Origin: Naegleria gruberi
Taxonomy: Eukaryota
DNA length: 64,000 nt
Reading direction: 5' to 3' (one strand)
Assembly: GCA_000004985.1 (NCBI GenBank)
Contig: GG738898.1
Positions within the stretch are counted from its first letter, which is position 1, and the number at the start of each line of letters is the position of its first letter. Of this stretch, positions 16,937-49,919 are shown one piece after another. The notes under the pieces are model-generated. The model was given only the letters and a program-made list of their open reading frames with translations. It ran no database searches and was not told the origin of the DNA. Position numbers and translations under genes: made by a program.

Positions 16937-19900
16937 TTATTCAAAAATCTCATCTTCAACAACTGCTTTTACATGGTGCTTATCTGACAACAGATACGTG
17001 TTGCATAACCCTTTTCCTTTAACTTCGACACTTCTTTCCTCAAATTCAAATCCAATATGCTTCACTCTTTCATAAGTTGATAGTGAAATTTGAATCCTTC
17101 CTGAAAGTGATGTCGATTCCATTCTAGATGCTGTATTAACAGCATCACCCCACAAGTCGTAGGCAAACTTTTTTGTTCCAATTACACCAGCTACAGATTC
17201 TCCAGTATTCAAACCAATTCTAATATTGATCTGATGCCCAAATTCTAGTCGATGTTCCTCATTGTAAGATCTCACCACCTGAAAAACGTCTATGGCAAAT
17301 TTGAGTGTTCTTTCTGGATGGTCATCCTTTTCTGAGAGCTTGATTCCACCCACACAAAAGTAGGCATCACCAATGGTCTTGATCTTTTCCAAATTGTGTT
17401 TGTCAATGAGGGCATCAAAGCCATTCACTACATTATTCAACATGCCAACCAATTGAGTTGGATTAAGAGTTGAGGACATTTTCGTGAAACCGACCATATC
17501 AGAGAAGAAACAAGTCATGTCATCAAACTTTTCTGCAATAAATGTATCTCCAGATTTCAATCTACTTGCGACACTCTCTGGTAAAATGGATCTTAACAAG
17601 TTTTCAGACTTTTTCTTTTCTTCAGCCAAGAGAGCGAGTTGTTTCTTGTCATTGGTCACGTCCTTAATGAAACAAGTAATAACAGGCTTGTTATCAAAGA
17701 GTGTGGAAAATAAATTGACCTTTGCTGGAAATTTAGTTTGATTCTTTCTCAAACAATCTAAATCTACAGTTTCACCTTGAGATTCCTTTGTGGTGAGAGT
17801 TGATTGAATTAATTCGGAGATTAATCGGCTCAGCTCGTCTCTATTGTTCCTGTCGAAGAGACTTGTGAGTGAAGTACCAAGGGTATCACTTTGTTTGCAA
17901 TTGAACATTTTCTGGGCTGCTGGATTGAAAATTTCAATTTCACATGCACTATTGCAAAGAACTGCTCCGTCAACAACAGAATTGAGAATATTTCTCACTT
18001 TGGATTCATCACCTGTTCCTTTAGAAATATTCTTCTTCTTTCCAAAAAGTGATCTACTTGGAAGTTTCTCATAGAGTACGTACTCTCTTAGCTCATCAGA
18101 TAATTCCAACTCTTCATATTGAACATAGTTTAAAAGCATTCTCATGTGTTCCGTATTTTTCGAATGTGATTTGAAAATACTTCTCAACATTAAAAAGATT
18201 GAAACAATGCAGATAGCACCAAGCACTCCAAAAACAATTACCATTGAGACAGAAGGAGTGGAACGAGTGATGGTGAATAATGCGAGGAATTCCAGCAAGA
18301 CTATACTAATGGTATGTGCCAACTCATCAATTTGGAAATGTTTCTCCAATAATTGAGAATCTGAGTAAATATTCTTCATCAAGTCTTCATTTAGCTTTAC
18401 ACAACTCACCACGAATTCATCTACAATAGATTCCAAGCTGGAGCAGTTTTCACAAGCTTTAGTGGTGATAATTTCATCAATTCTTGGTACTATTCCCAAA
18501 ATGGAAGGTGAGACTCCAATCTTTCCATAAATCATGTCATTATATGTAGATCTAAGATCTGTTACATTGAATCGGATATCGTCTTTGAATAAATTTAAGG
18601 CTGAGTCATTGAACAGAGTTTTTGAATTGAAAAGTGAGCTCGGTAAATTACTGAAAGTCAATTCACCCATCTTGAATCCAATATTCTGAGTCAAAACAAG
18701 GGTCTCTGTTGTTTGTTTGACACTCAGCATGGTAGAGTAACCCAATTCTGAATTCAATACCAACTCGGCAAACATCATAGATGCACATAATAAGGAAGCA
18801 AGAGCCATAACAATGAAAATTAAATATCGAAGCATATTTCTCTTCCTGTTGAAGGTGTTCAAAAATTGAGACGAGTTACTGTGTGTGTACTTTCCCAATT
18901 CGGTATAAATATTCGAGATGAGCTCCTTCTTGATGTTCTTCTCGTAAGTTTTCAGAGTTCTTCCAATCTGAGAAAAGAAAATCTTCATGTACAAAAGGAA
19001 AGAAACAGCACAGATAACATAGACTCCACCAATGCTCACGAAAAAGTACAAGTAATCATTTGTAAATGTGTTCGCATTTACCTTGCATCTTTCAATGAAA
19101 TCAAAGCAAATTTCTACAAAAGCATTTGTAAAACTATTGTAATTGAGATAGAGAATCATAAAGTTGTAAACATCAACTGTAGAATTGAAACCACTACTAG
19201 GATAGGACTCCACCAAGTGCATAAGAATGGAGGATATTTCTGAGAGTGAAACATTTTTTACAATGAAACTGTCATAATATCCACTGCTTCTTTTGTTTAC
19301 AGTTGGAAGATAGAGCTTTTTTGTTTCTCCATTGTAGTCGTCATACATTTCAGGTGTGAACTTTCCAATCTTTTTTCCTTGTGACATTAGTTTAACATGC
19401 TCAATGTGTTCAACGTAGAAATCAACCCTTTCCTTCAATAATTCAGTAATTTTCTCCACCGATTGATCACTCTGTTCCAATGATAATACCATTTCATGAT
19501 AAATTTGAGGAAGTGCCTTCTGGAGCGAAACTGAATTTTGAGACTGACTCATCTGCAACACTATTTGCTGATTTCTAATCTGTTTGAAAATTGCATAACT
19601 TGAAACTGTTGGCTCGCAAACTTGCTGAACGAATTTCACATCAGCTAACACTCCATCAGAGAATACCAAACTCAATACTGCCGCACAAATCAGGAAAGCT
19701 GCAGAAAGAAGGCAAAAACATAAGGCAAGACAAATATTGAACTCGTGTCCAATTGGTTGTGCAAGAGCCATCTTGAATTTTTGATCTCTCTTTAAACTTG
19801 GATCTTCCTCCACACCATTCAAAAGTACATTCTCTGATATATCATCCAAATCCACTTCTACAGATTTATCATTCGCCCTATTATTATACAAGCCCTCAAG

Positions 19901-22015
19901 AAAGGCGATACTCTCCCCTCCTACTGCAGAAGTTTTCATTGCTTCCACTCGTTTTGCCTTCTTTGATTTTCTTAACAAGTTTGCTGCTTCTTCCTCTTCA
20001 AGCTCGTGTGCTTCAGAGTAGAATTCATTTGCAGTTTCTGAATCGAACTTGACCTCTTCCAAATATCTTGCATAAATTCTCAAGAAGGACTTGTTCATCT
20101 TGAAAGCTGAGAGTCTGTTTGAAAATGCAGTGTCCAAATCATTCATGATGGCTGTGCATTGTGTATTGATGATTTCTAATGTTTCCACATTCACAATATC
20201 ATTCATCATTTCCTTGAAGAATTCTCTATGGAGTGCTTTGAATTCTTTCAGTTTGGAGTCTAAACGAGAGGCAAGTTGTTCTGCATCGGTATGGATAGCG
20301 ACAACTGGTTTGTTCTCCTTCTTGTTAATTTCCTTCATCAAATCATGACAAGCAATCTTGTCAGTGAGTGATGTACTTATTCTACTTAGTTTTGTCATTA
20401 GTGAGAGGGAATAATTTGTGGCTCTCTCCTCTGTCATGCAGTAATAGACCAATAATGTGGCAAAATATAAGGTTATTGGATTTGCCAAAACTCTACTACT
20501 ATGAGCCCCCTTAATGAGTGCCAGAGCCATGTCAGTATCTGTGAGTGAGCTATTTGGATCCTTTGGTTTTTCCTCATAATTTGTTGCTCTCTTACGAATA
20601 ATATCAACTGAGAAGCTAAAACGGAGAAAAATATTCAGTTGATTTGTTAGTTGTTTTTCTGAAATGTAAACTAGTATTGAGGTGGCTTTCTTTTCAATGA
20701 GACTTCGTATAGTCTCATTAGAAAGACTCTTTATAAGATTTGATTCTTTAGAAGAACTCAAATCCTCATATTGCCCACCTTGTGTGAGAATAATCTGTCC
20801 AATTCTTCTCTTGATAATTCTAATGTAAGCTTCCATAGCTATAATTCCTCCAACGAATCCAATGACAATCAACCCTAAGGTAAGACCCATCATTCCCAAT
20901 CCAAAATCCCATTTCACTGAAGTGTTAGTTAAAGAAGATATTAATGATCCAATGGCACCTCCAACTTTTGCTCCTGCAATTCCTGAATAAATCGAATTTT
21001 CCCAAGACTTTTGGAATGGAAGAGATAGAAACAAAGGAATAAACCATGAAATAGACATGACCAAATGCACAATTGCTCTCCCAAAAACTTTTTGAGAGGG
21101 TATAAAGAAAATAATGAACACTTGTGAAATATTCGTGATGGAGAAGAATGTTAAAGGCCAATCATAAACCGGTTTGAAAACAAGAGAGCTATCCCATGTA
21201 GGAGAAAAACTAAAACGTGTCGCCATTATACTAATGCACAAAGTGATGAAGGCAACAATTGAGAATGCATAAAGAGTTAAATTTGAATTTCCAAAACATC
21301 TCACACTAGAAAATCTCTGCAATGCATAATCTGAATTATCAATCTCCTCAAAGTATACTGTCTTTGAATAATCACATTCGATAAAACTTGTCAAAATAAA
21401 GGCAAATATCATTGATAACCCATTCATGAAAAAGCCAACAAATAGTAATAGATTCTTCAGTTTCTCCATGTGCTTACTAGCTTTAAAAACTCCCCAAGCG
21501 GAGAACATGACCACCAACATGGCTATAAAACAAATGGTAATGACCAAACTAGTGATAACAACCATAGCATCATAGGGTACTAAATCCAATGAGAGTGTAA
21601 TTGGATAATTGAGAGCACGAAAAACCCACTCTCCATACTCTCCAAAATTAAAAGATCCCAACGTTGAGACCCAAACACTAGTCCACAATATATACAAATT
21701 ATACGCAACAGATAATAAAAGCTGTTTCCATCCTCTCCTCTGTTTTCTATCTTTCATTGATGAGATGAATGTAAAGATTGCCTGTTGTCCATTCCTCATG
21801 ATTGACGAAGTGATTGATGAAGATCGTCCCGTCTGATGACTTGTCTCACTCTCCACTATACTACTTCCATCGAAAACTTCATTTTGAGGCCTCCTTATTC
21901 CCTCAAAGAGAACTGTTGAATTATCTATTGATGCTGCTTGTAGTTGATGATGAGAAACCCCACCCTGAATAAGTATACTCGTTCGCGGAGAAACAACAAC
22001 ACCAGAATGTTCCAT
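16937..22015 (-). CDS. Large multi-pass membrane nucleotidyl cyclase, intron-free, 1692 aa. It has two clusters of TM helices, a PAS-like domain and a C-terminal class III adenylyl/guanylyl cyclase catalytic domain.
   Basis: It has a genuine ATG at 22013-15. The PAS-like region reads ...VVDGAVLCNSACEIEIFNPAAQKMFNCKQSDTLGTSLTSLF.... The cyclase domain reads FTPEMYDDY..., DMVGFTKMSS, KIKTIGDAYFCVGGI, and GLNTGESVAGVIGTKKFAYDLWGDAVNTASRMEST, the class III CHD signature. Confidence 0.8.
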   Translation of the reverse strand: MEHSGVVVSPRTSILIQGGVSHHQLQAASIDNSTVLFEGIRRPQNEVFDGSSIVESETSHQTGRSSSITSSIMRNGQQAIFTFISSMKDRKQRRGWKQLLLSVAYNLYILWTSVWVSTLGSFNFGEYGEWVFRALNYPITLSLDLVPYDAMVVITSLVITICFIAMLVVMFSAWGVFKASKHMEKLKNLLLFVGFFMNGLSMIFAFILTSFIECDYSKTVYFEEIDNSDYALQRFSSVRCFGNSNLTLYAFSIVAFITLCISIMATRFSFSPTWDSSLVFKPVYDWPLTFFSITNISQVFIIFFIPSQKVFGRAIVHLVMSISWFIPLFLSLPFQKSWENSIYSGIAGAKVGGAIGSLISSLTNTSVKWDFGLGMMGLTLGLIVIGFVGGIIAMEAYIRIIKRRIGQIILTQGGQYEDLSSSKESNLIKSLSNETIRSLIEKKATSILVYISEKQLTNQLNIFLRFSFSVDIIRKRATNYEEKPKDPNSSLTDTDMALALIKGAHSSRVLANPITLYFATLLVYYCMTEERATNYSLSLMTKLSRISTSLTDKIACHDLMKEINKKENKPVVAIHTDAEQLASRLDSKLKEFKALHREFFKEMMNDIVNVETLEIINTQCTAIMNDLDTAFSNRLSAFKMNKSFLRIYARYLEEVKFDSETANEFYSEAHELEEEEAANLLRKSKKAKRVEAMKTSAVGGESIAFLEGLYNNRANDKSVEVDLDDISENVLLNGVEEDPSLKRDQKFKMALAQPIGHEFNICLALCFCLLSAAFLICAAVLSLVFSDGVLADVKFVQQVCEPTVSSYAIFKQIRNQQIVLQMSQSQNSVSLQKALPQIYHEMVLSLEQSDQSVEKITELLKERVDFYVEHIEHVKLMSQGKKIGKFTPEMYDDYNGETKKLYLPTVNKRSSGYYDSFIVKNVSLSEISSILMHLVESYPSSGFNSTVDVYNFMILYLNYNSFTNAFVEICFDFIERCKVNANTFTNDYLYFFVSIGGVYVICAVSFLLYMKIFFSQIGRTLKTYEKNIKKELISNIYTELGKYTHSNSSQFLNTFNRKRNMLRYLIFIVMALASLLCASMMFAELVLNSELGYSTMLSVKQTTETLVLTQNIGFKMGELTFSNLPSSLFNSKTLFNDSALNLFKDDIRFNVTDLRSTYNDMIYGKIGVSPSILGIVPRIDEIITTKACENCSSLESIVDEFVVSCVKLNEDLMKNIYSDSQLLEKHFQIDELAHTISIVLLEFLALFTITRSTPSVSMVIVFGVLGAICIVSIFLMLRSIFKSHSKNTEHMRMLLNYVQYEELELSDELREYVLYEKLPSRSLFGKKKNISKGTGDESKVRNILNSVVDGAVLCNSACEIEIFNPAAQKMFNCKQSDTLGTSLTSLFDRNNRDELSRLISELIQSTLTTKESQGETVDLDCLRKNQTKFPAKVNLFSTLFDNKPVITCFIKDVTNDKKQLALLAEEKKKSENLLRSILPESVASRLKSGDTFIAEKFDDMTCFFSDMVGFTKMSSTLNPTQLVGMLNNVVNGFDALIDKHNLEKIKTIGDAYFCVGGIKLSEKDDHPERTLKFAIDVFQVVRSYNEEHRLEFGHQINIRIGLNTGESVAGVIGTKKFAYDLWGDAVNTASRMESTSLSGRIQISLSTYERVKHIGFEFEERSVEVKGKGLCNTYLLSDKHHVKAVVEDEIFE

Positions 22016-29426: not shown

Positions 29427-29532
29427 GGCTACGGCCATATCACGATGAATGCACCTCATCCCGTCCGATTTGAGAAGTTAAGCATCGTCGAGCCACATCA
29501 GTACTGAGGTTGGAGACAACTTGGGAACCTGT
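29427..29532 (+). rRNA. 5S rRNA gene copy lacking the last 12 nt of helix I, so probably a truncated copy or pseudogene.
   Basis: The sequence is GGCTACGGCCATATCACGATGAATGCACCTCATCCCGTCCGATTTGAGAAGTTAAGCATCGTCGAGCCACATCAGTACTGAGGTTGGAGACAACTTGGGAACCTGT. This is 5S-like (GGCCATA...CCCGTCCGAT...GAAGTTAAGC). It is 100% identical to the minus copy over 106 nt. It then diverges and lacks the GGTGCTGTAGTC 3' end. Confidence 0.6.
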
Positions 29533-29888
29533 AAATTCATTTTACAAATTGTTAGATGAATTGTGGGGTGGATTAGCATTTGAATTTGTGAAGAATTCAA
29601 ATAGGATAAAGACTATTAACAAACAAACATTATTTTTGATCAATTTGAAGCATTAACAAATATAATTAGATTACATAAATCTTTTCTCATTGTTTCCACT
29701 AATTAATTCTAATCCAAATTTGTTTGCCTTATTAAATCCAATAACTTGAAGGAAAATCTTGGAAGACAGAGAGTACTGGAGTAAGATTGTGCTTAGACTT
29801 GAAATTCTAAAAATATTTTGAAAACAACAAACTCGTGTCCCTGAATCATGGTATTTTAATTGGCATTTCCTATTCTCTCCATAAAGAT

Positions 29889-29893
29889 AAAAA
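29889..29893 (-). terminator. Pol III T5 terminator directly downstream of the minus-strand 5S gene.
   Basis: A5 on the plus strand is T5 on the gene strand, right after the 5S 3' end. Confidence 0.55.
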
Positions 29894-30011
29894 GACTACA
29901 GCACCACAGGTTCCCAAGTTGTCTCCAACCTCAGTACTGATGTGGCTCGACGATGCTTAACTTCTCAAATCGGACGGGATGAGGTGCATTCATCGTGATA
30001 TGGCCGTAGCC
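29894..30011 (-). rRNA. 5S rRNA gene, full length at about 118 nt.
   Basis: The reverse complement is GGCTACGGCCATATCACG...GGGAACCTGTGGTGCTGTAGTC. The 3' end pairs with the 5' end as helix I (GGCUACGGC / GCUGUAGUC). A T5 run follows. Confidence 0.8.
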
Positions 30012-30311: not shown

Positions 30312-32944
30312 ATGAACAAGACATTTGGCATGTTATCATGTCTGTTACTCTGTCTCATTGTATGCCTCGTCAGTGAAGAGACACACGCATTGACAGCAAC
30401 AGAATTATTGCAAGTTAGAGCAACTCTCCTTTCAAATGTCACTTCAATTCCTTATTCATATGTTGGTTATTTGTTTAGTCATGGCAGCAATTCTGTTCCA
30501 ATTATTGTTGGTTCTGGAGGTAATGCAGTAGTAGTTGCAGCTACTAGCTCCAATTCCTTGTCCACAGCTGGTCGAATTTGTGCATTTGGACATAACGGTT
30601 ATGCATACACATCTGACATGACATCTGGCACAGCTCAATTATTGAAAAATTGTGCTAAATGGACTACCAAAAACAAAGCCAATGTCAGTTACATGCTACA
30701 CGGAGTCAGTCAAAGTGGTGGCTCCACTTTTTATAACTCAATTTCAGGATTTTCATTGAACACATCAAAGAATGCATTCGACGAATTGGTTCGTCCATTA
30801 GAAAGCGTTGATTTACTAATTTTGAATTTAAATTCACTCTCAGGTGAGGCAACCTCCACTCAAATCCAAATGCTCTCCGACTTTTTGAATAGAGGTGGTG
30901 GAATTATTTGTGTAACTACTGCTTGGGCTTATTCCATTTCTGGAAATAGATTTCCTGGAAATGTGTTCTTTTCCAGATTGGGAGTTTCATTCTATACAGC
31001 TTATTTTGAAGGTAGCCCATTTGTGGCATCTACTAAGGATTTGAGTGAAGTGAATGCTTATTTCAAATTGGAACAAATTCAAAATACCTTTTCTTTATAT
31101 GGAAATGTTTCTACAGATGATGTGAATACAGTTGGAAATATGCTATCCAATGTGTATCCAACATTGCCACAGCCAATTACCTTAAATTCCATTGAAACGA
31201 ATCAAAAAGCCAAAACTGTCTATGATTCCATTTGTGGAAGTACAACAATTTCCTTCCCAGTTTCGTCTTCTTTCCAGAAATTCTGTGTAGTCATGGTGGA
31301 CACACTAAACAAGGCAAACATTTTACCAATCTCAAATAATCCACAAGTTTTGGCAGGTGAAAACTTCCCNNNNNNNNNNNNNNNNNNNNNNNNNNNNNNN
31401 NNNNNNNNNNNNNNNNNNNNNNNNNNNNNNNNNNNNNNNNNNTATATCGTATAGTGGAGGTACCATTTACTTTGATGTGTCCAAAATTCCGTTATCCTTC
31501 ACTGCAACCATCACAGGACAAGTGGTAAAAANCTCCCTTTTTTAGAAATGACCTTCACACAGATTCTGATTGGAAAAATACCATTAGAAATTATCCAGGA
31601 CCTTGGGTAGAAGTTGAATCCGATTATTTCGTATTCAATGTTGAGTCGTCCTATGCCAGAAACTTGACAGAATTGACCAGTGTCACAAATTACTGGAAAA
31701 AGGTTTTGGAGCTTTATTATGAACTCTCCCAAAGACCAATTAGAGATTATAAGGAAAGAATGCAAATTGATATCGATATTTCAATTGGATATATGCATTC
31801 TGGATACCCAATTATGGCATTTCAGGACCAAAATGAAGGAACTATTAAGGCAGTCAACCCTGCCAACATGGCTCTTGCTTCAAAAACTCCTGGACGTTGG
31901 GGACATTACCATGAATTGGGACACAATTTCCAAGTTTCTGATTGGACCTACTCTCAAGCAGTTGAAGTAACTTGTAATATTTTCTCTTTATATTTGGAAG
32001 AGAATTTCCCAGATTCGGCCAATACTTATGGAAAGTCGTTTAATCCACCGAGAGGTCTTGAGACCACTTTTAAGGGAAATACTCAGGATTATAAGGGGGA
32101 TTGGACAAGTGCTGGTTTATTGTTTTATTTGGATTTGATTCAAGCTTTCGGTTGGGTTTCTATTCGAAAGGCATTTGCTGAATATTATACAGCAGCTTCT
32201 GGAACTTTACCAACCAGCGAGGATGAAAAGAGAGATCAATGGGTTGTAAGATACAGTAAGATTGTTGGTAGAAATCTTGGGCCTTTCTGTGATGCTTGGA
32301 GTTTCCCAATTTCACAATCAGCCAAAAGTCAAGTTTCTAATTTAACTTCATGGATGCCAAATAATTTCATTGTTGGATGTTCAGTAGCTCGTTTCTCTGA
32401 TTCACCTTGTGCTTCATTAACCATTCAAGATAATTCCTATGCCAAGTCAACCACCTATGAAGTGAAAATTGTAACTTGGACACCAGTGAGAAGTATTTAT
32501 GGTGAACGTTTCATTTTCACTTTCGGTGGTGATTCTCTTCCTCAATTACAAACTGGAACAACAGCTCTCACCTTATTGGATGGAACAACAAGTTTGAACT
32601 CAACTGCTGTTGTGACTAATAATAATGGAACGAGTATTACACTTTCGACCAATGTTGTCGAGTTTGTCAAATCTGGACAACTATTGAAATTCTCCTTCCA
32701 AGCAAAGAATAGTGTCAAGATTGGAAGCTTTACCACTTCAATTAAGATATTGGATTCAAAGAATGTATTGGTAAATGTTGTGGAGAGACCATTAGAGTTT
32801 ACCAATTCAATTGTCATTCCAACTTCATCTTCAACAGTGGTTGGAAAGAAGAGTACAGTTACTGGCAATTCTACCAAGAACGGGATGAATGTAGTGTTAA
32901 TTGCATTCTTGATTGGTTGGGTATTATTTGTTTATTCCTTCTAG
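30312..32944 (+). CDS. Secreted or membrane-anchored M60-like (enhancin / TCAF-type) zinc metallopeptidase. It is interrupted by an N-gap at 31370-31442 and has an apparent 1-nt frameshift near 31532-31545.
   Basis: It has a signal peptide, MNKTFGMLSCLLLCLIVCLVSE. The M60-like core reads DSDWKNTIRNYPGPWVEVESDYFVF...GRWGHYHELGHNFQ (HExxH) ...EV.... It has a hydrophobic C-terminus, VVLIAFLIGWVLFVYSF, which is a TM or GPI signal. The two ORFs at 30312..31454 and 31664..32944 are on the same strand either side of the gap. Confidence 0.65.
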
Positions 32945-35623: not shown

Positions 35624-36955
35624 TTATCTCAAGTAAAGAGCACCATTTCTGTTGGTGAGTGTAGCACTAGCAACACTTGTTGTATCATAGACGTATTGAA
35701 CACCAGGATTGAATCCAGGACCTGGACCTCCCTCAGGACATGAAGGATAAGTATAAGTTGCCCAAACCGTGCCTGCACCTGCATTCATGAAAGAGTCAGT
35801 TGTAGCACGTGGAATACCCATTCTGAACCCCATACAGTGCATATCTGATGTCTTACTATAGGTGACATAGGTTGGAAGAGTTAGAACATTCTTCAAATTG
35901 TAACATGTTGCAGGAATGGCAGCATAATAAGTTTGCATCGTTGGATCACTGTATGCTGTTACTCTTGTTCTTTGAACGTAATCTCTCAATCCTTGTGGAA
36001 TTGTACAATAGGCACTATATTGCCAATCATTTGTAAAGAAATTAGAAAAAGCAATAGTTGCTGCATTACCACTGTCAGTGGATGCTCTAATCTGAGTGGA
36101 AATATTCATCAAATCAGATGTTGGAATGTGGAATGTAATAGTATCATTTGTAGTGGTGGCAGCATTATCATCAAAGACGTGGAAGTGAGCTCCGTAATAG
36201 TCTCTTCTAATACCAGCAAACATGGTCCATCCTCCACCGTCTGTATCCATATCACAATAGACTGTCATGACTGTATTTCCAGGTTTAATTTGATACAATC
36301 CACTTCCTTCACCCAAGTACATTCTAGGAGCTATTGGATTTCTATACTCCTTACATGATCTTGCATAGGTTCCATCGGCATATTTAAATCCACTCACTGA
36401 ATTATAGCTGGTTGTTGTACCATTGACTGTTTCACAATTATCTCCAATGTAAGGTGATTTACAGGAACACTTATTGGAGGATGTACAGTTACCACGTCCA
36501 GAACAAACTGAGGCGCTTGTGGCGAGTACACCAAAACATGCCATTTGCATGCAATTGATTCCGGCCCATCCTGAGGCGCATCCTTGGTTGCAATCATCAC
36601 CACTATAATGTTGACATGTTGTTGTGATGGTGTTAACTTCCAATGAGAGACTATCGATGGCGGTTTGAATTTTATCAGATTGTTTTTGTCTCAGTATTAT
36701 AATTGAGGTCAAATTTGCATTTCCAGTAGAGTTGAGGAGGGAAATAGCAGACGTGATTTTAGCCTTTGTACTCACTAGCTTTGCAAGTTCTGCATTAAGG
36801 TCGGTAAGGTAGGATCTAATGCTGCATCCTCCTGGGAGAGTGCATGTAAAATTTTGTTGTCCATTCACAACATGATATGTTGCGGATGATGATAACAACC
36901 CAACCAAAATGAGCAGCAAGACTCGTGTGGAAATGAGATGAGCGATGCCTTGCAT
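35624..36955 (-). CDS. Secreted protein with a coiled-coil region, EGF-like Cys-rich modules and a fibrinogen-related-domain (FReD) A-subdomain-like core.
   Basis: The signal peptide is MQGIAHLISTRVLLLILVGLLSSSA. The EGF-like spacing is CQHYSGDDCNQGCASGWAGINC...CSGRGNCTSSNKCSCKSPYIGDNCE. The FReD-like block is CKEY...GSGLYQIKPGNTVMTVYCDMDTDGGGWTMF. Compare the FReD consensus C..y...G...sGvY.I.p......VyCDMetdGGGWTV. The region downstream of this diverges from canonical FReD. Confidence 0.55.
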   Translation of the reverse strand: MQGIAHLISTRVLLLILVGLLSSSATYHVVNGQQNFTCTLPGGCSIRSYLTDLNAELAKLVSTKAKITSAISLLNSTGNANLTSIIILRQKQSDKIQTAIDSLSLEVNTITTTCQHYSGDDCNQGCASGWAGINCMQMACFGVLATSASVCSGRGNCTSSNKCSCKSPYIGDNCETVNGTTTSYNSVSGFKYADGTYARSCKEYRNPIAPRMYLGEGSGLYQIKPGNTVMTVYCDMDTDGGGWTMFAGIRRDYYGAHFHVFDDNAATTTNDTITFHIPTSDLMNISTQIRASTDSGNAATIAFSNFFTNDWQYSAYCTIPQGLRDYVQRTRVTAYSDPTMQTYYAAIPATCYNLKNVLTLPTYVTYSKTSDMHCMGFRMGIPRATTDSFMNAGAGTVWATYTYPSCPEGGPGPGFNPGVQYVYDTTSVASATLTNRNGALYLR

Positions 36956-37357
36956 TGCGTTTTTTTTCTAAGGATTGTTGGGTGGTGGAACAAACATATA
37001 TCGATATTGAAACTGTAGTTGGGTAATTTGGACCCTCAAATACCGAATGCCTTATTGATACTCTTTTAATTTTCCAAAAACCAATTGACCAAGGAAGTGT
37101 TGGTAAATATTTGACACTTCAAGTAACGTGGGAAATTGGAAAATTCACAGAGTTTTAAAGTTAGTAGGAATACTTGTACAAAGATTTTGAGCCTTTGGGT
37201 GCTGTTTGATACTTGTACGAGAAGCAGTAACTAACTGTAATGTGAAATATTTCCATCAATACTGCTCAAATATTCCTACATCCAATCAACTGATAACTCG
37301 CTAGCAGTAGATGCTCAGAACAAGCAAGTTGTGCATCACCTCTGGTATTGTAATCAT

Positions 37358-37495
37358 CAGCAAACATTCAGCATGTTCATGCACATAAAATGTACTACTA
37401 CAGCTTGTTGTATTGATTATCGAACGCGAATCACTGACAAATGTCACAACCATTGTACATTTTAAATGTGCATGAACATGCTGAATGTTTGAAAT
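37358..37495. repeat. Near-perfect 35-bp inverted repeat with a roughly 58-nt loop, forming a hairpin, in the intergenic region upstream of the giant adhesin gene.
   Basis: The left arm is CAAACATTCAGCATGTTCATGCACAT-AAAATGTAC. The right arm is GTACATTTT(a)AATGTGCATGAACATGCTGAATGTTTG. There are 26 identical bases and then a 9-nt block with 1-2 nt of indel. Confidence 0.6.
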
Positions 37496-37740
37496 GAACA
37501 CTTCAAACCTCTAACATGTGAAAGGTTTAAAACCTATGAATTTTCAATAGAGCGGTAAATTAACGAGGAGGATTCCAGAGTGAACTGCCTTACTGTCGTT
37601 GTAAACTGCCCTATTCACTCAACTTTTTGATGTCAAGTGGTTTGATACTTTCAACTCTACCACTACGAGTGTCAAAAGTCAATAAAACTAACCTTCCACC
37701 TCGAGCAAAACATACTTCATCATTAAAAAAAACAATCAAG

Positions 37741-40700
37741 ATGCCAGCTACTATCTTGAACGGTTCTACCACTTCAAGTTCTGGTCTCAATATTAACCTT
37801 TCATTGTTGGTAAGTTTACATATTTCACATGAGCTTAATTATAATTCTTTATTGTTGTTGTTGCTGATCTTTCTCCACACCAATGACATCTGGCACTGTG
37901 ATCTCTCTTACTCTTTCGATATTTTAATATCACATGCTAAACTAATTACTTTGAATGGCCATGTTGTTTCTTTTCTAAATTCTCCACTTTGACCAAAACG
38001 CGGTCAATTCAACTTTTTAAAAAATTGGCATCACATTTGATCTTCTGAATCTTTGCAACGCGATTTTCCTTCTTTGCTCCTTTGGCGCTTTTTCTGGTGC
38101 GGTTCAATCATCATCAATATTAATTTATTGTTAAAATTACTTTTTTAAATGATGAATCCGTGTTGAGTAGAAAGGAGGTACTATTAGTCAGACAATTGTA
38201 TGTTTTTTAAATATTTTGTATGTTTAATATTTTGAATGTTAGGTTGGTGCAATTATTACAGCTTTGGTAGTTGCTTCCACAGTTGCTACTATTATCTTGG
38301 TTTCAGTTGGTGTTGGTTATTCTAGTCCTCAACCGTATGTACTTTTAAAATTCATTATTTGAAATTAATTGAAATCTAGTCAACCTGATTTTGCTACTAC
38401 TTACAAGAGAGTGCCTATTACTGTTGATGTACTCATAAATGATAACGATCCACGTGGTGGTAATCTTACTTTGACTCAAATTGTTGATCAACCAAAGTAT
38501 GGTACTGTCAAGATTCTTTCTCGTTCCCAAGTTGTTTATCAATCCATTGGTTCTTTCTCTGGAAATGACACTTTCAGTTATGAAGTTAGTAATTCCTTTG
38601 TTACAGCCAATGCTACTGTTACTGTTCAAGTTTTGAATAGACCTCCTCAAGCTGTTCCAATCTATAAGAAGATCTCCAAGAATGCTAATAAGGCTCTCGT
38701 TGATATTTTCAATTATATTGGTGACAATGATGAAAAGATTACTGATATTGATAATGATGTCTTGTATGTTACTGGCTTCGCTGATCAACAAGTTACCAGT
38801 GGTAATGCTCAAAGTTTAGGTGCAATTGAAATTGATCCTTACAATGGTTTCTTGTACACTCCTGTTAATGGTTTCAATGGTATCGAACAATTCAAGTATA
38901 CCATCTCAGATGGTAATGACACTGCTTCTTCAACTGTTACTGTTGAAGTTGAAAATGATGCTCCTGTTGCTACTGATGATGTTTACAGAATTCCAAAATA
39001 TAGTAGTTTGGAATTGCTCATTTTACAAAATGATTATGATATCAATGGTGATGATTTCAATGTTACCAACGCTGTTGGTGCTGGTTATGGTGCTCTTCGT
39101 GTTCAAGACAAGACTGTTGTCTATTTCACTTCAAGTGTTTTAACCAAAAAGTATACTGATTCTTTCGAATATTCAATTTCTGATAGTCAAGCTTCAGGAT
39201 CTGCTGTAGTTTCTGTTCAAGTTTACAATACTGAACCAACTGTCTACTCCAAGACTGTCACTGTTGGAAAGTCCTCTTCCAATAACCTCATTTCAATTGA
39301 TTACTCTGATCCTGATGGAAAGGATGTTGTCGTATTGACCAAAGTTACTCCTGCATTGGCCTCTCTTAATCCAGCTGCTTCCATGCAAGTTGCTAAGGGT
39401 ACTAAACGTGTCAACCTTGATTGTTGTGATTGGGTTAGCGTTGAAACTAATAATTACACTATTGTTTATACTCCAACTCCTGGAGTTGTTTACTCACAAA
39501 CTTTGGATATTTCCATGACAGATGGTGAATCTGATGGCTATGGTAAGATTACTATTAATGTAGTCAATAATCCACCTGTTGCTGTTGATGACACTGTTAC
39601 TTGTAATAAGAATCAACAAGTTTTGATTAATGTTCTTGCCAATGACTATGATGTTAACCCAGGCGATACTGAACTTCTTCAATTAACTAATAACGGTTGG
39701 CAATCAACTACCAAGAATGGTGGTTCTGTTTCTATTTATAATGCTACACATGTATTGTATGTTGCTCCAAAGGGTAGTTTGGCTACTGATGTTGCCTCCT
39801 ATAGAATCTATGATCAAAGCAAAGATGTACAAGGTAATCCAGATTCTACTGGTTTCTCAACTGGTAAGATTAGTATTAACATTATCAATAATCCACCTGT
39901 TCCTGTTGATGATGTTTTTACTATTTCAAAGGGTCTTAATGCCACTTTGAACGTTTTGAATAATGATTATGATCCTAATTTCGATCTTATTTCAACAATT
40001 AACTCTGTTGATAGATCAACTGTTAAAAATATCTTGGCTACTATTGTTAAGAATTCTGGTGAAAATGATACCTTATTCTATACTGCTGCTAATGAAGAGT
40101 ACACTGATTACCTTACTTATGATGTAATTGATGTTGACGGTTTGGTTTCTGAAAATAAGGCCACTGTCACTTTGAATGTTGTCAATAATGCTCCAGTTGC
40201 TAGAGATGATACTTATAGTGTTAACTGGAATCACAATATTTTGTGCCCTGTCAAGACTAATGATGCTGATATCAATGGTGATTTGCCTTCTTCCAAGATT
40301 GAAATTTATCAAAATCCATCTAATGGTGTTGTTGAAGTTATTAGTGATAGTGTAAGATATACTCCAAATACTGCATTTGTTGGTGTTGATACTTTCCAAT
40401 ACAAGTTGAACGATGGTAGTGTTGCCAATTTCTTGTCAAATGCTGCTACTGTTACAATTAATGTTTTGAATACTGCTCCTGTTGCTGTTGATGATACTGC
40501 CACTACTCACTGGAGAAATGATGCTGGTGTTTTAGTCAGTGTTTTGGTTAATGATTCTGATAATGAAGGTGATTCCTTGTCTGTTACCAATGCTCTAGTT
40601 GATGCTGTACTGCTTCAGTTTTTGATAGTCAAACTGTCAAGTTTGTTTCAACTCAAACCTCTGCTACTGTTGGTACTAAGCAAATTAAGTATACCGTCTC

Positions 40701-43700
40701 TGATGGAAACAAGAATACCATTGGAAATGTCAATGTCTTGGTTACAAATACCAAACCAGTCGCTTTTGCTGATGCTTACACTTACCACTGGGCTGCTCCA
40801 AAACAAACATTGAGTGTCATGTCTAACGATAAGGATGCCGACCTTGATCCAATTTCAATCAAATCTGTTTCTGGAAGTGCTGCCGCTGTTAAGAATGGAA
40901 ATGATATTGATTATACTCCAAAGAAGGATGGTGTTACTGATACCTTCCAATATGTCATTACTGATACTGTTACTGATGCTGATCCAGCAACTGTCACTGT
41001 TACTTTCACTAACAATGACAAGCCAGTTGCTTCAAGTGTTTCAACTTCTATTCACTGGAGAGCTTTCGCTGCTCAATCTAATCAACAAGATTTCTCTGTT
41101 TATTCCTCAACAACTGATGCTGATGGTGACGCTCTTACATTGACTGTTAATCCAACTGCTACTGGTATTTCTGGTGCTTCATGTAGCAAGACCACTGATT
41201 CAATTGCCAAGGTTAGAGTTACAGCTCCAACCAAGACTACTGGTTCTGCCACCTGTTCCTTCTCAGTTTCTGATGGTTTGGCAAATACTGGATCAAAGAC
41301 TGCTACTGTTACTATAACTAACAATGCTCCAACATGTACTGATATTACTGTTTTCTTCAATGCTATCTATGTGTCAGTTGGTCAAACATTCTCCGTTTCT
41401 TCATCTGTTAGTGATGCTGATTCTGCTGATGTTCCTTATTTGGCAGCTAGTAGTGCAATCATGTCTGGTTCATTCTCAGGTGATACATTCTCTGTTTCAA
41501 ATGGTAACCTCCTCTTCAAACCAAATGGTCAATTGGGTAATCGTGTTTATGGTTATAAGGTTACTGATGGTATTGTTGAATCTAGCCAATGTAAATTCAC
41601 TATCATTGTTAGCTCACTTTCTAATGCTGATTATTCACAAGCCTATGATGTTCACTGGAATGTTACCAAGGCTTTCCTTAATATTACTTCCAAGTTGACC
41701 ACATCAACCATTATGGGTATTGTTCAACAACCTTCTGAAGGAATTGCTTACTTTGAAGGTGGTAAGATTTATTTCACTCCTGCCAGAAAGATCTATCTTG
41801 ATTCTTTCATTGTTAGTGTTAAAGATGGTATTGTTAGTAACGTCTCTGTTTCAGTTTCCACTTACAATAATGCTCCAACTGCCAGTGTTCCAACTCAAAA
41901 TATTAATTGGGGTAAATCAGTTGTGATTGATTTGTTACAAAATTATGCTGATGCTGATTATTCTGCTGGTCGTGAAATTAAGGGAAAAATTTCTGGTGTT
42001 GACAAGACTGGTACTTTGGGTACTGTTTCTGCACTCTCTGGTTCAAGTGTTACTTACACTTCTCCAGCCAATTATGTTGGTTCTGATTCATTCAAAGCTA
42101 CTGCTACTGATGGTCTTGCCTTTGTAACTTTCACTGTTACTATCAATATAATCAATACTGCTCCAGTTACTAATGCCAAATCATACACTGTTCACTGGGC
42201 TGTTCACAAACTTGGTTACACAATGAATTTGGCCACAGGTGTCACTGATGGACAAAATGATCCATTGACTTATGGTATTGTTTCTGGAAGTGTTTCACCA
42301 TCTAGTGCTGGTACTGTTGCCATTTCCACTTCACCAAATGCTGTTGCTACTGCTGGTACATCTGTTTATTTGGGCAAGTTTACATACTCTTATACTGCTT
42401 CTGATTCTCTCCTCTCTTCTCCAGGTACTGCCACTGTTACTGTTTATAATACTATGGTTACACCTGTTGCTGACTCTTTGAGTGTTCACTGGAGAGCAAC
42501 TAATGTTCCTTTGAATCCATTTGCCAAGTTTGCTCCTACCTATAAGGATTCTGAAGGTGATAGTTTAACAATTCAAACTGCAACTGCTCAAAAGGGTACA
42601 GTTTCCATTGTTTCTGGTTCTCAATCATTACTTTACAATGCTCCAACTAGTCCACCTTCTCTTGGTACTGATGTAGTTTCATACAAGTTTACTGATGGTG
42701 CTGAATCTCTCCAAAGCACTGCTACTGTTGTCAATGTAAATGTTTATAACACTGTCCCAACTGCCAAGAATCAAGTTGTTTATGGAAAGTGGAATTCTCC
42801 TGTTTCAGTTTCTTTAGCTAATGTCTGTTCTGATATTGATACATTGGATATTCCATATGTTGCATTCAATGGTGTTATTTCAAATGTTGCTGGTGGTTCA
42901 ACAAGTCTCTCTGGTACAACTGTTACCTTCACTCCAAGTGTTACCTCTCTTGTTTTTACTCAAATTTCTGGTAATCTTTACAATGCTACTGCATCATTCA
43001 AATTCCAATGTTTCGATGGTATTTCTACCAGCACTGGTAATGTCACTATTATTCTTTCAAACAATGCTCCAACCGGAACTGGTAAGACTGTCAATATTGC
43101 CAGAGATTACACCAAGACAACTTATGATTTTACCTGGTCTGAAATTGCCACCTATGCCAACCCTGATGTTGATGGAGATTCAGTAACTATTACTAATCTT
43201 GTCTCTGTTGATTCTTCCATCACTGTGGAACAGGTATTAGATTGAACACTCCAAAGACTGTTTCTGGAACTAAGCAAATTACTTTCTACTTGTATGATGG
43301 TCTTCACTATAGCATCAGCAAGTTGACATTTACTGTAATCTTTAGTAATTCTGCTCCAACTTGTGGTGTTGTTTCAACAATATATTTAAATAAGAAGGGA
43401 AGTGTTGATCTCTCAACTAAATTCTCAGGAACAGATTCCAATAATGATCCAATTACTTTCACCTTATCTGGTTCACCTGGTTCATTGGGTACTTTGAGTG
43501 GTAAGGTATTTACTGCCTCAGCAACTAATACTGGTACTGTTACCTTCTCTTACACTGCAACTGATACACAATTGACAAGTTCATCATGTAGTATTCAAAT
43601 TATCATCCAAAATGCTAATCCATCTGCCAATGATACAATCTTTTATATTTATCCAACTGCTGATTCTTTGTCTCACTACTTGAGCTATAAGGCAACTGAT

Positions 43701-45086
43701 GCAGATGGTGATACTTTGACTTATACTGCTGGTTCAAACAATTGTTCATCCATTTCTACAGGTGTTAGCATGAACTCAGCAAGTGGATTGATCACATTCA
43801 AGAGAATTTACACTGTTGTTTCTGGTACTTGTAAAATGAGTGTTTCTGTATCTGATTCTAATACTCCTTCTGGTAAAAGTAATGCCACCATTACATTTGT
43901 GATCGTTCCAATTGATCCAGTTGCCAGAGATGACAGATTCTCAATTCCTCAAGGTCAAACAATCAGAATTTTCGCTTCACAAATCTTGGCAAATGACAAT
44001 GATGAATTGGGTACTTCTAGCACTCTCACATTATTGAACATTAGTTGTCCAGATGCTACTTATTGCCACAAGCAACCAAGATTTGTAACTGTTAATGATG
44101 AAATTGCTGTTGAAGTTGACTCTGACCAAAATACTTGCCAAGCTGATAAGTTCAGATATACAATGACTACTGCACTTGGAGCTATTAGAAGTGCTGATGT
44201 CTACATTGAGTTCAAGAATTGCTATTGTACTGCCAAACTTGACTTTGTCTTTTTATTGGACTCTTCTCAATCAATTGGTGTACCAAACTTTAACCTAATC
44301 AGAGATTTGTGTCAGAGAATTACTGGTAGAATGAAGCTTGCTGATGATGCCGTAAAAGTTTCCATCGTTCGCTTCCATTCTTCTGCTACACTGACCTTGG
44401 CCTTGTCAACTGATGGATCTTTGATCAATAAGACCTTATCTACTATGAAGTACGACGCTGGCTTTACCGCACAAGTGCCCGGACTAAGAGCTGCAGTCAA
44501 TGCATTAAGACCAGAAAATGGTGGAAGAGCTGATGCTGATAAGGTCATTTATATTTTAACAGATGGTCTTGCCAATGTACCTTGCGATTGTTCTTCTTGT
44601 GAATCTGAATGGGGAACAATTCCAAGTGTTTTCAAAGACTCTGTTCAAAACAAAATTATTAATGGAATGACTAATCCTGCAAAATCTACTGCCTTGAGAA
44701 ATATGTGTAAATATCAATATAATGACGGATCTGAATTGGTTGGAACTGATTGTAGTTCATGTAGTATGAAAGATGAATATATGTGTTTGCCATGTTCAGA
44801 TGCTATTCCTGTTGCTGCAAAGATTAATACTTGGAAACGTAATTCTAATGGAGTAGTTCCAAATGATCCTGATAATCCATATAATGGAAACAATAAGGTT
44901 CAATGGAAGGTTGTTGCTATGGCTGTCGGTGACGCCATGACCAATGTTTGGGGTTCAAGACAAATCGAAGGTATGAATTATGATTCAACTAGAGCTATTA
45001 CTGTTTCTTGGACTGATTTATCTGGTACCATGAGTGAAATTGTGGATCAATCTTGTAATCAAGTTAACGTTCAAGTTCCAGTTTAA
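37741..45086 (+). CDS. Giant type-II-like single-pass membrane adhesin of at least 2300 aa. It has a short N-terminal cytoplasmic tail, one TM helix, then about 25 tandem bacterial-Ig/cadherin-like (VCBS / tandem-95-type) repeats of about 90-100 aa, a C-terminal von Willebrand factor A domain and a Cys-rich tail. The exons are about 37741..37809, 38243..38334 (TM) and 38380..45086. The big exon carries two apparent 1-nt frameshifts, near 40605-40615 and 43225-43240.
   Basis: Exon 1 is MPATILNGSTTSSSGLNINLSLL|GTAAGT. Exon 2 encodes VGAIITALVVASTVATIILVSVGVGYSSPQP. A GTATGT...AATCTAG intron of 45 nt follows, with matching phase. The repeats have the pattern PVAxDDxYxxxxNxxLxxxVLxNDxDxxGDxLxvt...GtvxxxxxxvxYTPxxxFxGxDxFxYxxxDGxxxxxATVTIxVxN. 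The VWA domain reads KLDFVFLLDSSQSIGVPNFNLIRDLCQRITGRMKLADDAVKVSIVRFHSSATLTLALS...ADKVIYILTDGLANV. The three consecutive ORFs at 38369..40813, 40738..43245 and 43242..45086 overlap by a few nt with +1 frame changes. Confidence 0.7.
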
Positions 45087-46167
45087 ATAAATTATTATCA
45101 TTCCTCAATTTAGTTTCAGTTTTCTCTTTCTCAAATTTTACTGAACTATATTTTCAACTTTGATTTCTAAAAATATAGTTTGTTTATTTAGTCACTTTCT
45201 TAGAGAATGATGATTCAGGTGGTGATGATTTAAATGGTGATCAGAAGAAGAGAAGATAAAGATTTGGTAAAATAGAAAATTGATAACAACAATGCAAAAA
45301 TTATGCACTCGAGTGGCATTGTTAGGTGAAGTTATTAGAGTTATGTATTTCTTTTGTTGCATCAAACTTTCTTGAAAAACTATAAAACAAAATTAAAAAA
45401 GCAAAAATCAAAAAAGTACTTACAAAATTGTATTTCAAAAATTTCAAATATTTCACCTATGTGAAATTTACAATGAAGGTATTGATTGGATTTATGAATG
45501 TAAATCATTTTGTTTTTTTTGTATAATTCAAATGAAAGACTTGTTATTTCTATTTATTCAATTTCGTTTATTCATTTGTTGCCCATTATATTCATCAAAT
45601 TTCATTCCCAATAAATCAAGTGTTTTTTATTTGGAGACATTAATGTTTCAATAATAAACACACAAAATAAAGTTCAAATAATATTTAGACATTTGAGTAT
45701 TAAAGTTCAAAGTTTGAATCATCTTTATGGTGAAACAGTCTGGAAGGTGTTTTGTGTGGCAACAATTTAAGGACTTGAAAAATATTCAAAAGTGTATTCT
45801 TTATAACAAAACATAATCTAAATTAAGGTCAACATCTTTATTTGAATTGTTTTACTTGTCATGTTATCAGGTAATAAAAATGACTATATGTGAAAAATCC
45901 ACCCTAATCTGTAATTTTTTATTCTGAAACAGCAAATCAACGGAAAATATTAATGAAAAGTGGTCAACAGATCAAGTGGAGAATGCATAAAACAGATTTT
46001 GATACAAGAAAACACAATGATAATAATAAATAATTGTATTTAATTATTGAAATAATTCAAAGTGGAAAGTCAACAAGATTTCCTACCTTGAAATTTACCT
46101 TGTTCAAAAGATATCTAGACAAAATAACAGCCTACCTTTCAAAAATAATCATTAGATATTAAAAAAA

Positions 46168-47811
46168 ATGATAACCCTCCAATTCTTGCTCAATTTATGC
46201 AGTTATTTCATCACGGCAGGAATTGTAATTTTCCTATTGTGGTTTCTGTATGCCACCATCATATTGTACATTAATTATAAAAAGCTTGCACACATTCCTG
46301 GTCATTTCCAATATTTATTTGCTCCATTCCGAATTCCTCTTCTTGCTCCTCGTATTTATCTTGGCAATTTTGAAGGAATTGAAAAAGCCTTTGATGAATT
46401 TTCTGATGGAAATGGAGTTTTGAGAATGTCATTTGTGAGAGGCAATACTGTCATGATCAAAAACAAGCAAATGCTCAAGGAATTCTTTGTAACAAAACAA
46501 TCAAGTTTTGAAAAACCAGAATTCATCTATAGCATGTTTGAAATGTTTGGGCAGAATGTGTTGAGTGCACCAGATGTTTCGGATTGGAAGAGACATCATA
46601 AAGTGGCACATCCAGCATTTTCCATTGATAATTTGCAGTACATGTGTGAGGAGGCTGTGGAATGCACTGATTTGTTGGTGGATCGTTGGATCAATAGCCA
46701 TTCTGGTAAGAGTTTCGAATTGAAAGATGATGAAATTGGTGAAGCCATGTCTACCGTAACTGTTGAGGTTTTAGGTCGTGCTGGATTGAAAGTTTCATTT
46801 GGAATGTTTGATAGAGAGGATTCACATGCTGAGGAGTTCAAGAATGCAGTTAATTTGCTAGTTTCTAAGGGTCTTTTAGTACAGAGATTCTTTGGAAAGA
46901 ATCCATTTCTCTACAAGTGGTCACAGAGATTATTAGGAGTGGATAAAGCTGTTTCCATTGTGAATAGAGTTTTGAATAATAGTATTGTGGATAGAAAGAA
47001 GGAATTGGAAAGTGATTTTGGTAATTTCTCAAAGAAGGACATTCTGAGCTTGTTGGTCAAGGCAAATGCTGAGGAAAAGACCTTGACAGATATGGAGCTA
47101 AAGAGCAATTCATTGATTTTCTTACTTGCTGGAGAGGAGGTTTGTTATTTTAAATTGTGTGATTAATTTTTTCAATTAATAATTAATTCAGACAACATCC
47201 TCATCGTTGCAATGGGTTTTATACGAGTTGGCTAAACACCCTGAGTATCAGAAAAGAGCTAGAGAAGAAATCAATTCAGTACTTCCTAACAAGGCAAAGC
47301 CAAATTATGAAACTGTACAAGCATTGCCATTCACAACAGGTGTTATTTTGGAAGCTCTTCGTCTTCATCCTCCTGTCTTTTCAGTTGCCAAACAAACAGT
47401 GAAGAATGTCAAGTTGGGAGATTATGAAATTCCAAAGAATACCCTTGTCACTGTGTTCATTTATGGAGTGAATAGAAGTAAGGAATATTGGAAAGATCCT
47501 GAAGAGTATCAACCAGATAGATTTATGGATATGGAGCTAAGAAACAAATCTCAACATGATTTTACATTTCTTTCATTTTCTATGGGTCAAAGAAAGTGTA
47601 TTGTAAGTATAGAGTTGTTGGCTAATGTGGCTAATATGAAAATAAGGGATTTCAATTTGCTCAACTGGAAGCTTGTATGATTTTGGTGCGCTTGTTGCAA
47701 AACTTTGAATTCACTCTTCTGAACGACGAATCCAAAGAGAAAGTCAGGGCTATGAAAAACGTTACAATCAGACCAGCAAATCTAAAATTGTTGATCAAGC
47801 CAACAAAATAA
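46168..47811 (+). CDS. Cytochrome P450 monooxygenase, about 515 aa. It has three exons at about 46168..47139, 47192..47602 and 47647..47811.
   Basis: It has an N-terminal membrane anchor, AGIVIFLLWFLYATIILY. The I-helix FLLAGEE|TTSSSLQWVLYELAKHPEYQ is split by a 52-nt GTTTGT...AATTCAG intron. The PERF-like motif is EALRLHPP. The heme-binding loop FSMGQRKCI|GFQFAQLEACMILVRLLQNFEF is split by a 44-nt GTAAGT...AAG intron. The frames check out. Confidence 0.8.
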
Positions 47812-48094
47812 ATATTCTTGGTACTTGGTCGTCATCTTATCAAATTTCTGAAATGGAATAAATTCGATCTCTTGTGAAATTCTGAAATATAGAACTCTTA
47901 CCCTACAAATAGAGTGTTGTCAACAACTTGAGTATGTATAATTTTCGGAGGAATATTCTCCTTCTCCATCGCTTGTTGGAAAGAACGGTTCAGTTAGTTG
48001 GACGCATGTTTATTTGAATCGGTACATGCACGACTAAGAAATTAATTGGTTTAAACTGCCTAAGGCTCTGCTGCATATCCATAACCAAGAAAAA

Positions 48095-48435
48095 ATGTCT
48101 AAATCAATTGCCTCTGCATTGTTAGTTTGTTGCGCCTTAAGTGCTGTTCAAGCTTTCTCAGTCTTTGAGTATGAATGTTCTCAAAGATTCTCCCTCCTTA
48201 CAACCTCTCTGTTCAAGATAAGAATGTTTGTTGTTTCCCAGAAAAACTCACTATTTCCAATGAAATCATTCAAGGACTTACTAATTCTACTACTCACGGA
48301 CGCACTGTTAAGAAGATTCAAATTGAGGCCTACATTGACTTGACCAATTCTAGAATGTTGTTGATCACTTCGAGCCAACCACTCACAAAATATCGTCGAG
48401 CTGTAATTAGAATACAAGTGGAGGCTGCTGGTTAA
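48095..48435 (+). CDS. Candidate small secreted protein of about 90 aa, with a signal-peptide exon joined by a short intron to a second exon. The model is tentative.
   Basis: MSKSIASALLVCCALSAVQA is a textbook signal peptide. A second frame encodes ...NVCCFPEKLTISNEIIQGLTNSTTHGRTVKKIQIEAYIDLTNSRMLLITSSQPLTKYRRAVIRIQVEAAG*. A 62-nt GTCTTT...ATAAG intron would join them in phase 0. Confidence 0.25.
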
Positions 48436-49919
48436 ACCTTTTAGAAAATAAAAATGGCAACTGGAAAAAACAACAAAAACCACCAACTTCTACTTGTATT
48501 CTAATGTACAGCTCGACGACCGCTTGGCTCGTAGTGGATGGAAATTCAATGACTATTTTCCAACACAATGGCATGAATATGTTGTTACTCACATGGTTAT
48601 GAATAGTCAATGTACTTGTTTTAAGCATCAATCTTGAAAGACAATGAGTAAAGAACTCACTCCAACCTCAACCAGAGTCTTTAAAGATAACTAATATGAA
48701 TGAAAATTTTCCTTTGGAATGTGGGTTTTGTTGGGTACTCTCAAGAGAGAAGGACTTTGCTGACCATGAACGCTTTTTCAACAAGTGCCCTAGCCTCATT
48801 GGAATCCAGTTTTTATGACATGGTTGACACTGTTGATTCCAGTGTTTTCTTCCATCCAAGCAATTGTCCAGCTATTAACAAGTGTTAAAATTCTGATCTG
48901 AATCTTTCAAGGTTTTTCTTAATTGTTTTCCTTATCTATAACTATTTCAATTCACTTCTCAATAAAATTTAAATTGATATTTTAAAATATTTCAGAAACT
49001 TTCAATTATGACTTTCCAAATACCTCTTTGCTGATTCACTTCCAAATTTGAAAAATCCAAAAGTTCCGTTGGAAGATAATTTAACCATCAGCAATCCATC
49101 TTCCAAACTCATCATAAGCGAACAATTAAATAACAATCGGAAGCTGTGATTTTGCCCTAACTTTTGAAACAATTTAAATTTATAAAATATATTGAAAATG
49201 GCCCTCATGTTTTATATAATACTTCTTTTTCGAAGTAAGAAATCATCAAAGCAAAGTAACGACGATGAATGATGAATTTCATCTTTGCATTTTTTATTAT
49301 AATTTCAAAATTAAAAAAATTACATTAAAAAATATTATCAATATGATGAGAGTTTGCTTTTTCCTTGATTATTTCATGATATTAAATAATGATATTTAAA
49401 TAATTTTAATTACATTGTATCATCGGCATAAGAGGATCGTTTATTGGACACTCCACTCAGGGAAATTGTCTCACTTCGACTCGTTGAAACTGAAGATGCT
49501 AAATGGAAATGAAGACTGATAATAGAAGGGATTCTCCTGTAGGCTCCAAAATATTTAGAAGAGTTGTTTTATAAAAGCCTCAAATCATCATCAATAATTT
49601 ATTGGATATGAATCTCTCAAGGAGTTAATAGCTTAAGGAATGCCACTTTACAGAAAAAGAGGCTAATAACAAAAATCTTGTGATGAAAAAGATGTTGAAA
49701 TCAGCGTCAAAGATTACTATTAGATAGTTGGTGTCTCCTTTCGCTGTTTAAGGAAAATCAATATTTGGTGTGTGGCCTGTCTAGTGTTGGGTTGTGTCAA
49801 ATGTTAAACCAAAAGGCAATTCATATGTTGACACAAAGAAATCCACTAAGCCAACAGGCACTTCAGTGGTGGTTGCGCAACATTCTATTCGTCAACATTC
49901 TAACAACAAAAAAAACAAG

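Follow-up and report, generated by a model that had tools for sequence, protein, structure and literature searches.

A near-perfect foldback between two divergent genes of Naegleria gruberi, possibly an inverted duplication formed in place

Single template-switch events are known to create perfect stems, including those of new miRNA-like hairpins (PMC5453318, PMC8794818, PMC10710096). Naegleria genomes carry DNA transposons, CMC-EnSpm and piggyBac elements among them, and the elements listed for N. lovaniensis include CMC-EnSpm (PMC6125883); CACTA-type termini combined with 3-bp duplications are a hallmark of the EnSpm/CACTA (CMC) superfamily (PMC12730594). Naegleria also encodes Dicer-like, Drosha-like RNase III and Argonaute homologues (PMC13315211). 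Here we describe a foldback in a 64-kb stretch of nuclear Naegleria gruberi DNA (hereafter the window; about 35% G+C, with dense ORFs). The foldback spans 131 bp (37361-37491) and lies inside a 786-bp spacer between two divergent genes, at distances of 405 and 251 bp from their start codons. The features of the locus are as follows.

37361..37395, no strand: left arm of the repeat, 35 nt, CAAACATTCAGCATGTTCATGCACATAAAATGTAC; the perfect core is its first 26 nt
37396..37454, no strand: loop or spacer, 59 nt, with small local stems only
37455..37491, no strand: right arm of the repeat, 37 nt, GTACATTTTAAATGTGCATGAACATGCTGAATGTTTG; the A pair at 37464-37465 is the sole bulge
35624..36955, minus strand: left neighbour, a single-exon gene for a secreted-type protein of 443 aa with EGF and fibrinogen_C matches
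37742..37810, plus strand: adhesin exon 1, MPATILNGSTTSSSGLNINLSLL, with a GTAAGT intron after it; the ATG lies 251 bp away from the repeat
37301..37501, minus strand: 66-aa ORF with a GTG start that spans the repeat; we do not regard it as a gene

An inverted-repeat scan returned two 26-nt arms (37361-37386 and 37466-37491) that are 100% complementary. When the left flank was aligned to the reverse complement of the right flank, the arms extended to 35 nt on the left and 37 nt on the right, with 35/37 nt paired, 0 mismatches and a single 2-nt indel consisting of the two extra A residues. The original prediction had described a near-perfect 35-bp inverted repeat with a small indel, and this description was accurate; it had also placed the limits at 37358-37495, and here the core stands but the 3-4 added flanking bases pair weakly. 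Outside the arms, complementarity between the outer flanks was no better than in shuffles (P 0.55-0.81), that is, the repeat ends sharply at the arm termini. The result is a 131-bp unit closed by terminal inverted repeats of 35/37 nt, and equally a stem 21 bp or longer that has few bulges (26+9 bp, one 2-nt bulge). No G:U pairs occur in the arm alignment, each arm contains CATG-rich sub-palindromes (e.g. GCATG-TT-CATGC), and the loop (37396-37454) had no similarity to anything in the sequences searched.

Positions 37350-37500 were folded as plus-strand RNA, as minus-strand RNA and as DNA, and each fold was compared with 200 shuffles. The hairpin energies, which the original prediction had proposed as a check, were -59.6 kcal/mol (z -8.6) for plus-strand RNA, -61.7 kcal/mol (z -7.8) for minus-strand RNA and -41.8 kcal/mol (z -9.2) for DNA, and 0/200 shuffles matched the native fold in any of the three modes. 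In a 150-nt sliding fold of the entire window, the hairpin at 37361-37491 stood out most, whichever strand was folded. The lengths of perfect inverted-repeat stems across the window agree with a first-order Markov null as far as 11-12 bp; above that length two loci are left, 37361-37491 (26 bp) and 48393-48519 (13 and 14 bp). The earlier view that such a stem is far beyond chance is therefore upheld, and the repeat is a real, statistically exceptional foldback. With 0 substitutions in 35 paired positions, the divergence between the arms would be less than about 9% (95% bound), which suggests that the repeat is young on the time scale of Naegleria speciation, although not necessarily younger than the roughly 1% divergence from the environmental relative described below.

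The left neighbour, whose ATG is at 36955, is 100% identical over its 443 aa to an NCBI entry named 'predicted protein [Naegleria gruberi]'. On the right is a giant gene, referred to here as the adhesin, with Big_9, Cadherin_4/5 and VWA domains. Its first exon is similar to the N-terminal sequence of P0003, the N. lovaniensis orthologue (MPEQITLGSTTAAREVIGFNLSLL), which supports the start at 37742, and the next exon contains VATIILVSVGVGYS, common to N. gruberi and P0003. The earlier estimate that the repeat lies about 250 bp upstream of the adhesin start is thus confirmed at 251 bp. The longest ORF over the repeat itself is the one of 66 aa. This ORF had been dismissed as almost certainly an artefact of the palindrome, and the view that it is not a gene is supported: an exhaustive HMMER search of 1.84 billion representative proteins gave no real homologues and only 2 matches, both of them translated tandem repeats. 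The unit has no coding capacity.

Several features of the surrounding DNA deserve mention in their own right. The adhesin gene (37742-45086, plus strand) corresponds to positions 10001-17403 of the orthologous N. lovaniensis locus; it encodes bacterial-type tandem-95/Big_9/Cadherin_4/5 repeats with a C-terminal VWA domain and has spliceosomal introns, its three long ORFs lying in different frames. Beyond N. lovaniensis and an N. gruberi paralogue, the named protein matches of the adhesin are all bacterial except for one from an archaeal metagenome bin, many of the matches carrying no name, and no 100%-identical protein was returned by the protein search. The adhesin is a candidate for an old bacterial-to-Naegleria gene transfer. 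Elsewhere in the window, 16937-22015 (minus strand) encodes a 1692-aa protein with PAS, TPR and adenylate/guanylate cyclase domains that is typical of Naegleria's expanded cyclase family. Two convergent 5S rRNA genes at 29427-29545 (plus strand; 69.6 bits) and 29893-30011 (minus strand; 105.4 bits) form an inverted repeat of 151 nt at 89%, the longest in the window. There are tRNA genes at 11764-11850 and 16747-16837 (both plus strand; 87 and 91 nt), probably intron-containing, of which ARAGORN reported the second only, with its anticodon unnamed. Scaffold gaps (N runs) occur at 8429, 15226, 31370, 55904 and 63116, and the largest, 59738-61646, accounts for an apparent G+C content of 7% and for overlapping 'ORFs' at 60-62 kb.

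The second fold outlier of the window, at 48366-48536 (171 bp, -64.9 kcal/mol, z -9.7), provides a local standard by which other hairpins can be judged. An ORF adjoining it matched an 81-aa protein from an ENA metagenome, 98% identical over the covered half of the query, and the 3458-bp contig that encodes this protein (L002; ERZ929261 k127_68549) aligns to window positions 46159-49749 in two blocks of 97.7% and 94.6% identity with gap columns counted, or about 1% divergence from substitutions alone. The contig lacks the hairpin and has an exact empty site at about 2184-2192. Where the window reads ...AATGTTGTT GAT, then the 171-bp element (CACTTCGAGCCAA ... TTGGCTCGTAGTG), then GAT GGAAATTC, the relative has ...AATGTTGAT GAT GGAAATTC, with a single GAT and one SNP difference. 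The 3-bp target-site duplication, GAT, is at 48363-48365 and 48537-48539. The termini of the element are 13 bp long, CACT(T/A)CGAGCCAA, with 12/13 positions matching and CACT...AGTG ends, and they enclose an inner inverted repeat of 42 nt. Given the empty allele, the GAT duplication and the CACTA-like termini, 48366-48536 is a non-autonomous CACTA-like DNA transposon (MITE), and we list it accordingly.

48366..48536: CACTA-like MITE; the sequence for a family search is CACTWCGAGCCAA plus the inner arms

The presence of this MITE in N. gruberi NEG-M and its absence from an environmental relative that is ~98% identical point to recent DNA-transposon activity in the species. The segment 48403-48511 within it (GTAATT...TGTACAG) would, if spliced as a phase-0 intron, connect two ORF frames (...TKYRRA followed by LDDRLARSGWKF...); this may be a coincidence or an introner-like situation, and an intron as the explanation of the whole hairpin was set aside for the MITE reading once the empty allele was found. 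The ORF from 48175 onward has no homologues except the 81-aa ORF of the relative. Other differences between the relative and the window, noted at window about 49081-49085 and 47824-47892, include about 50 extra bp in the relative at 49.08 kb (2734-2790 of the contig) and several slippage-type indels of 6-8 bp.

We also looked for other copies and relatives of the repeat at 37361-37491. At up to 3 mismatches there was no second copy within the 64-kb window; 23.7 kb of N. lovaniensis sequence contained none, and no exact 22-mer of the repeat was present in JGI metagenomes, IMG/VR or GTDB genomes. Of the 41-Mb N. gruberi genome, these searches cover the 64-kb window, and a control pattern from the proven MITE was likewise absent from the JGI metagenomes, such that 22-mer negatives of this kind say little on copy number. 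At the orthologous N. lovaniensis locus, the adhesin gene alone is common with the window. The region upstream of it has no inverted repeat and no similarity to the window's spacer, and there is no strong hairpin anywhere in the 23.7 kb. The two genomes are too diverged, and not syntenic at this locus, for the comparison to be informative on function. Protein searches with both flanking genes gave no near-identical metagenome-derived protein, and the assembly of the environmental relative appears not to cover the repeat locus.

The explanation we favor, tentatively and at somewhat less than even probability, is one that was absent from the candidates offered by the original prediction: that the repeat is an inverted duplication formed in place through a replication template switch. 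What we see is an adjacent reverse-complement copy, with arms 59 nt apart, sharp ends and no target duplication, and it is the combination of sharp-ended, perfect local arms with the lack of a duplication and the apparent single copy that leads us to this choice. In such an event, a nascent strand engaged in replication or repair would switch briefly to the nearby complementary strand and copy about 35 nt as the reverse complement, by an intra-locus template switch or by fold-back priming, and a later 2-nt slippage in the A run would have given rise to the sole bulge. With so long a spacer, folding of the product would be expected to need a single strand, which could be DNA of the lagging strand or, should promoter-upstream transcription run through the repeat, RNA; in the latter case a perfect duplex of 26+9 bp would be offered to Naegleria's Dicer-like enzyme. 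Some considerations run against a template switch. A copied tract of 35 nt is at the long end for events of this type, and the window has no general excess of perfect inverted repeats of 12-25 bp, as a frequent process might leave. In addition, we roughly estimate that long inverted repeats in compact protist genomes come more often from MITEs, as they would in a genome with 5.1% repeats (PMC6125883).

That estimate speaks for the main rival, namely that the repeat is a copy or relic of a MITE or foldback DNA transposon, a non-autonomous unit with 35-bp terminal repeats that was inserted by a transposase encoded elsewhere. The original prediction had named a MITE or foldback remnant as a candidate, and the part concerning size and architecture stands: 131 bp, terminal repeats, no coding capacity and a gene-proximal AT-rich site all fit. 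Moreover, long inverted repeats in the window are discrete outliers and not the tail of a continuum, and the one further strong hairpin there is a MITE of comparable size, proven and insertion-polymorphic. What was sought and is absent is the signature of insertion. Directly next to the arm ends there is no target-site duplication of 2-11 bp, nor is the repeat continued by a palindromic TA, TTAA or TWA, although arms this intact should have kept their duplication as the control at 48366-48536 has. A repeated 6-mer, ACCTCT, was rejected as a duplication; its copies are non-adjacent (17 nt beyond one arm and 15 nt beyond the other) and at chance level, with about 0.4 such matches expected by our estimate over 1024 boundary pairs. 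Nor is there a CACT...AGTG terminus in proper orientation: 'CACTTCAAACC' at 37498-37508 agrees with the MITE terminus in 9/11 positions, but its orientation is wrong, and the full 13-mer differs at 4 positions, where the background is 25 window matches with 3 or fewer mismatches. The repeat was also rejected as a relative of the proven MITE, the similarity between the two being at chance (P 0.53), and there was no second copy in the sequences searched, of which the 64-kb window is the N. gruberi part. The missing duplication and terminal motif weigh heavily against insertion, and we consider a MITE origin unlikely, if still a serious contender. Two further readings carry far less weight. In one, the repeat would be a regulatory or fragile DNA element of the divergent promoter, working as a cruciform, a palindrome that binds protein or a hotspot of recombination; this would agree with the central position between the two start codons and with the CATG-rich sub-palindromes, but 35 bp far exceeds any dimeric binding site, the upstream region is not common to N. 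lovaniensis, so that conservation is unsupported, and a spacer of 59-79 nt strongly disfavours cruciform extrusion from duplex DNA. Because of this long spacer we give a cruciform or protein-binding role very little credence. The several N gaps in the window betray a draft assembly and would allow for an assembly or cloning artefact of a Sanger-era scaffold, but the nearest gaps (31370-31532 and 55904-56134) are more than 5 kb away, and the 2-nt asymmetry and unique 59-nt loop are unlike a chimeric read join; of all the readings, this is the one we find hardest to believe.

A different kind of proposal concerns function and is compatible with either a template-switch or a MITE origin, i.e. that the repeat is an hp-siRNA or miRNA-like locus, transcribed from the bidirectional promoter region, diced and acting in trans. 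The stem is structurally adequate, as the original prediction of a hairpin or miRNA-like precursor had supposed: modelled as RNA (z -8.6 and -7.8), a perfect duplex of 26+9 bp would be a suitable Dicer substrate, the small-RNA enzymes are encoded in Naegleria (PMC13315211), and the sequence weakly resembles plant-type models of long miRNA precursors. The resemblance does not amount to family membership, which we rejected. At a permissive E-value, Rfam's mir-5014 scored 33.1 bits against a gathering threshold of 101, with 32.3 bits on the opposite strand, and MIR869 scored 25 bits against 330; a match to mir-5014 that is nearly equal on both strands indicates a generic palindrome or hairpin and not homology. 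Also against a hairpin RNA, neither G:U pairs nor compensatory changes point to selection at the RNA level or to a preferred strand, and no 21-mer of the arms recurs elsewhere in the 64 kb at up to 4 mismatches. With 0 such matches, the neighbouring genes are not targets, and we rejected a cis target among them. A literature search found no Naegleria small-RNA study, and we know of no endogenous small-RNA locus described in Naegleria. On the whole we regard an expressed hairpin RNA as improbable. More improbable again is the bolder combination in which the repeat would be a newborn hairpin-RNA gene, created by a template switch in a bidirectional promoter and its perfect 35-bp stem transcribed and diced. 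If true, however, Heterolobosea would gain their first described endogenous small-RNA locus, and the birth of a hairpin gene would have been caught in the act outside animals and plants.

Taken together, the candidates listed in the original prediction are partly supported, and in-place inverted duplication by template switching, which it did not list, now ranks first. The likeliest account is that the repeat is a neutral local inverted duplication that formed recently; both the mechanism of its origin and its selective neutrality are what we infer. As it stands, it is an unannotated and probably neutral promoter-spacer foldback of little significance, which would matter more if small RNAs map there, given the Dicer-like and Argonaute homologues of Naegleria.

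With regard to known systems, the repeat is like the MITE at 48366-48536 in its size (131 vs 171 bp), its long internal inverted repeat, its AT-rich loop, the lack of an ORF and the proximity to genes. It is unlike that element in having no target-site duplication, no CACT...AGTG ends, no outer terminal repeat and no detectable similarity to it, and presence/absence polymorphism has been demonstrated for the MITE and not for the repeat. Young plant-type MIRNA and hpRNA loci share with it a long near-perfect stem, a large loop and, through the models of mir-5014 and MIR869, a weak covariance-model resemblance, but its scores are far below the family thresholds and symmetric between strands. Template-switch hairpins of the Loytynoja and Goldman model are defined by comparison of the states before and after the event, whereas the repeat at 37361-37491 is known from one allele, and its 35-nt arm is longer than is typical for them. 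What the repeat has in common with these hairpins is a perfect stem that apparently arose in one step, arms that are local, the lack of a target-site duplication, a single copy as far as is visible and a position near existing promoters (PMC5453318, PMC8794818, PMC10710096).
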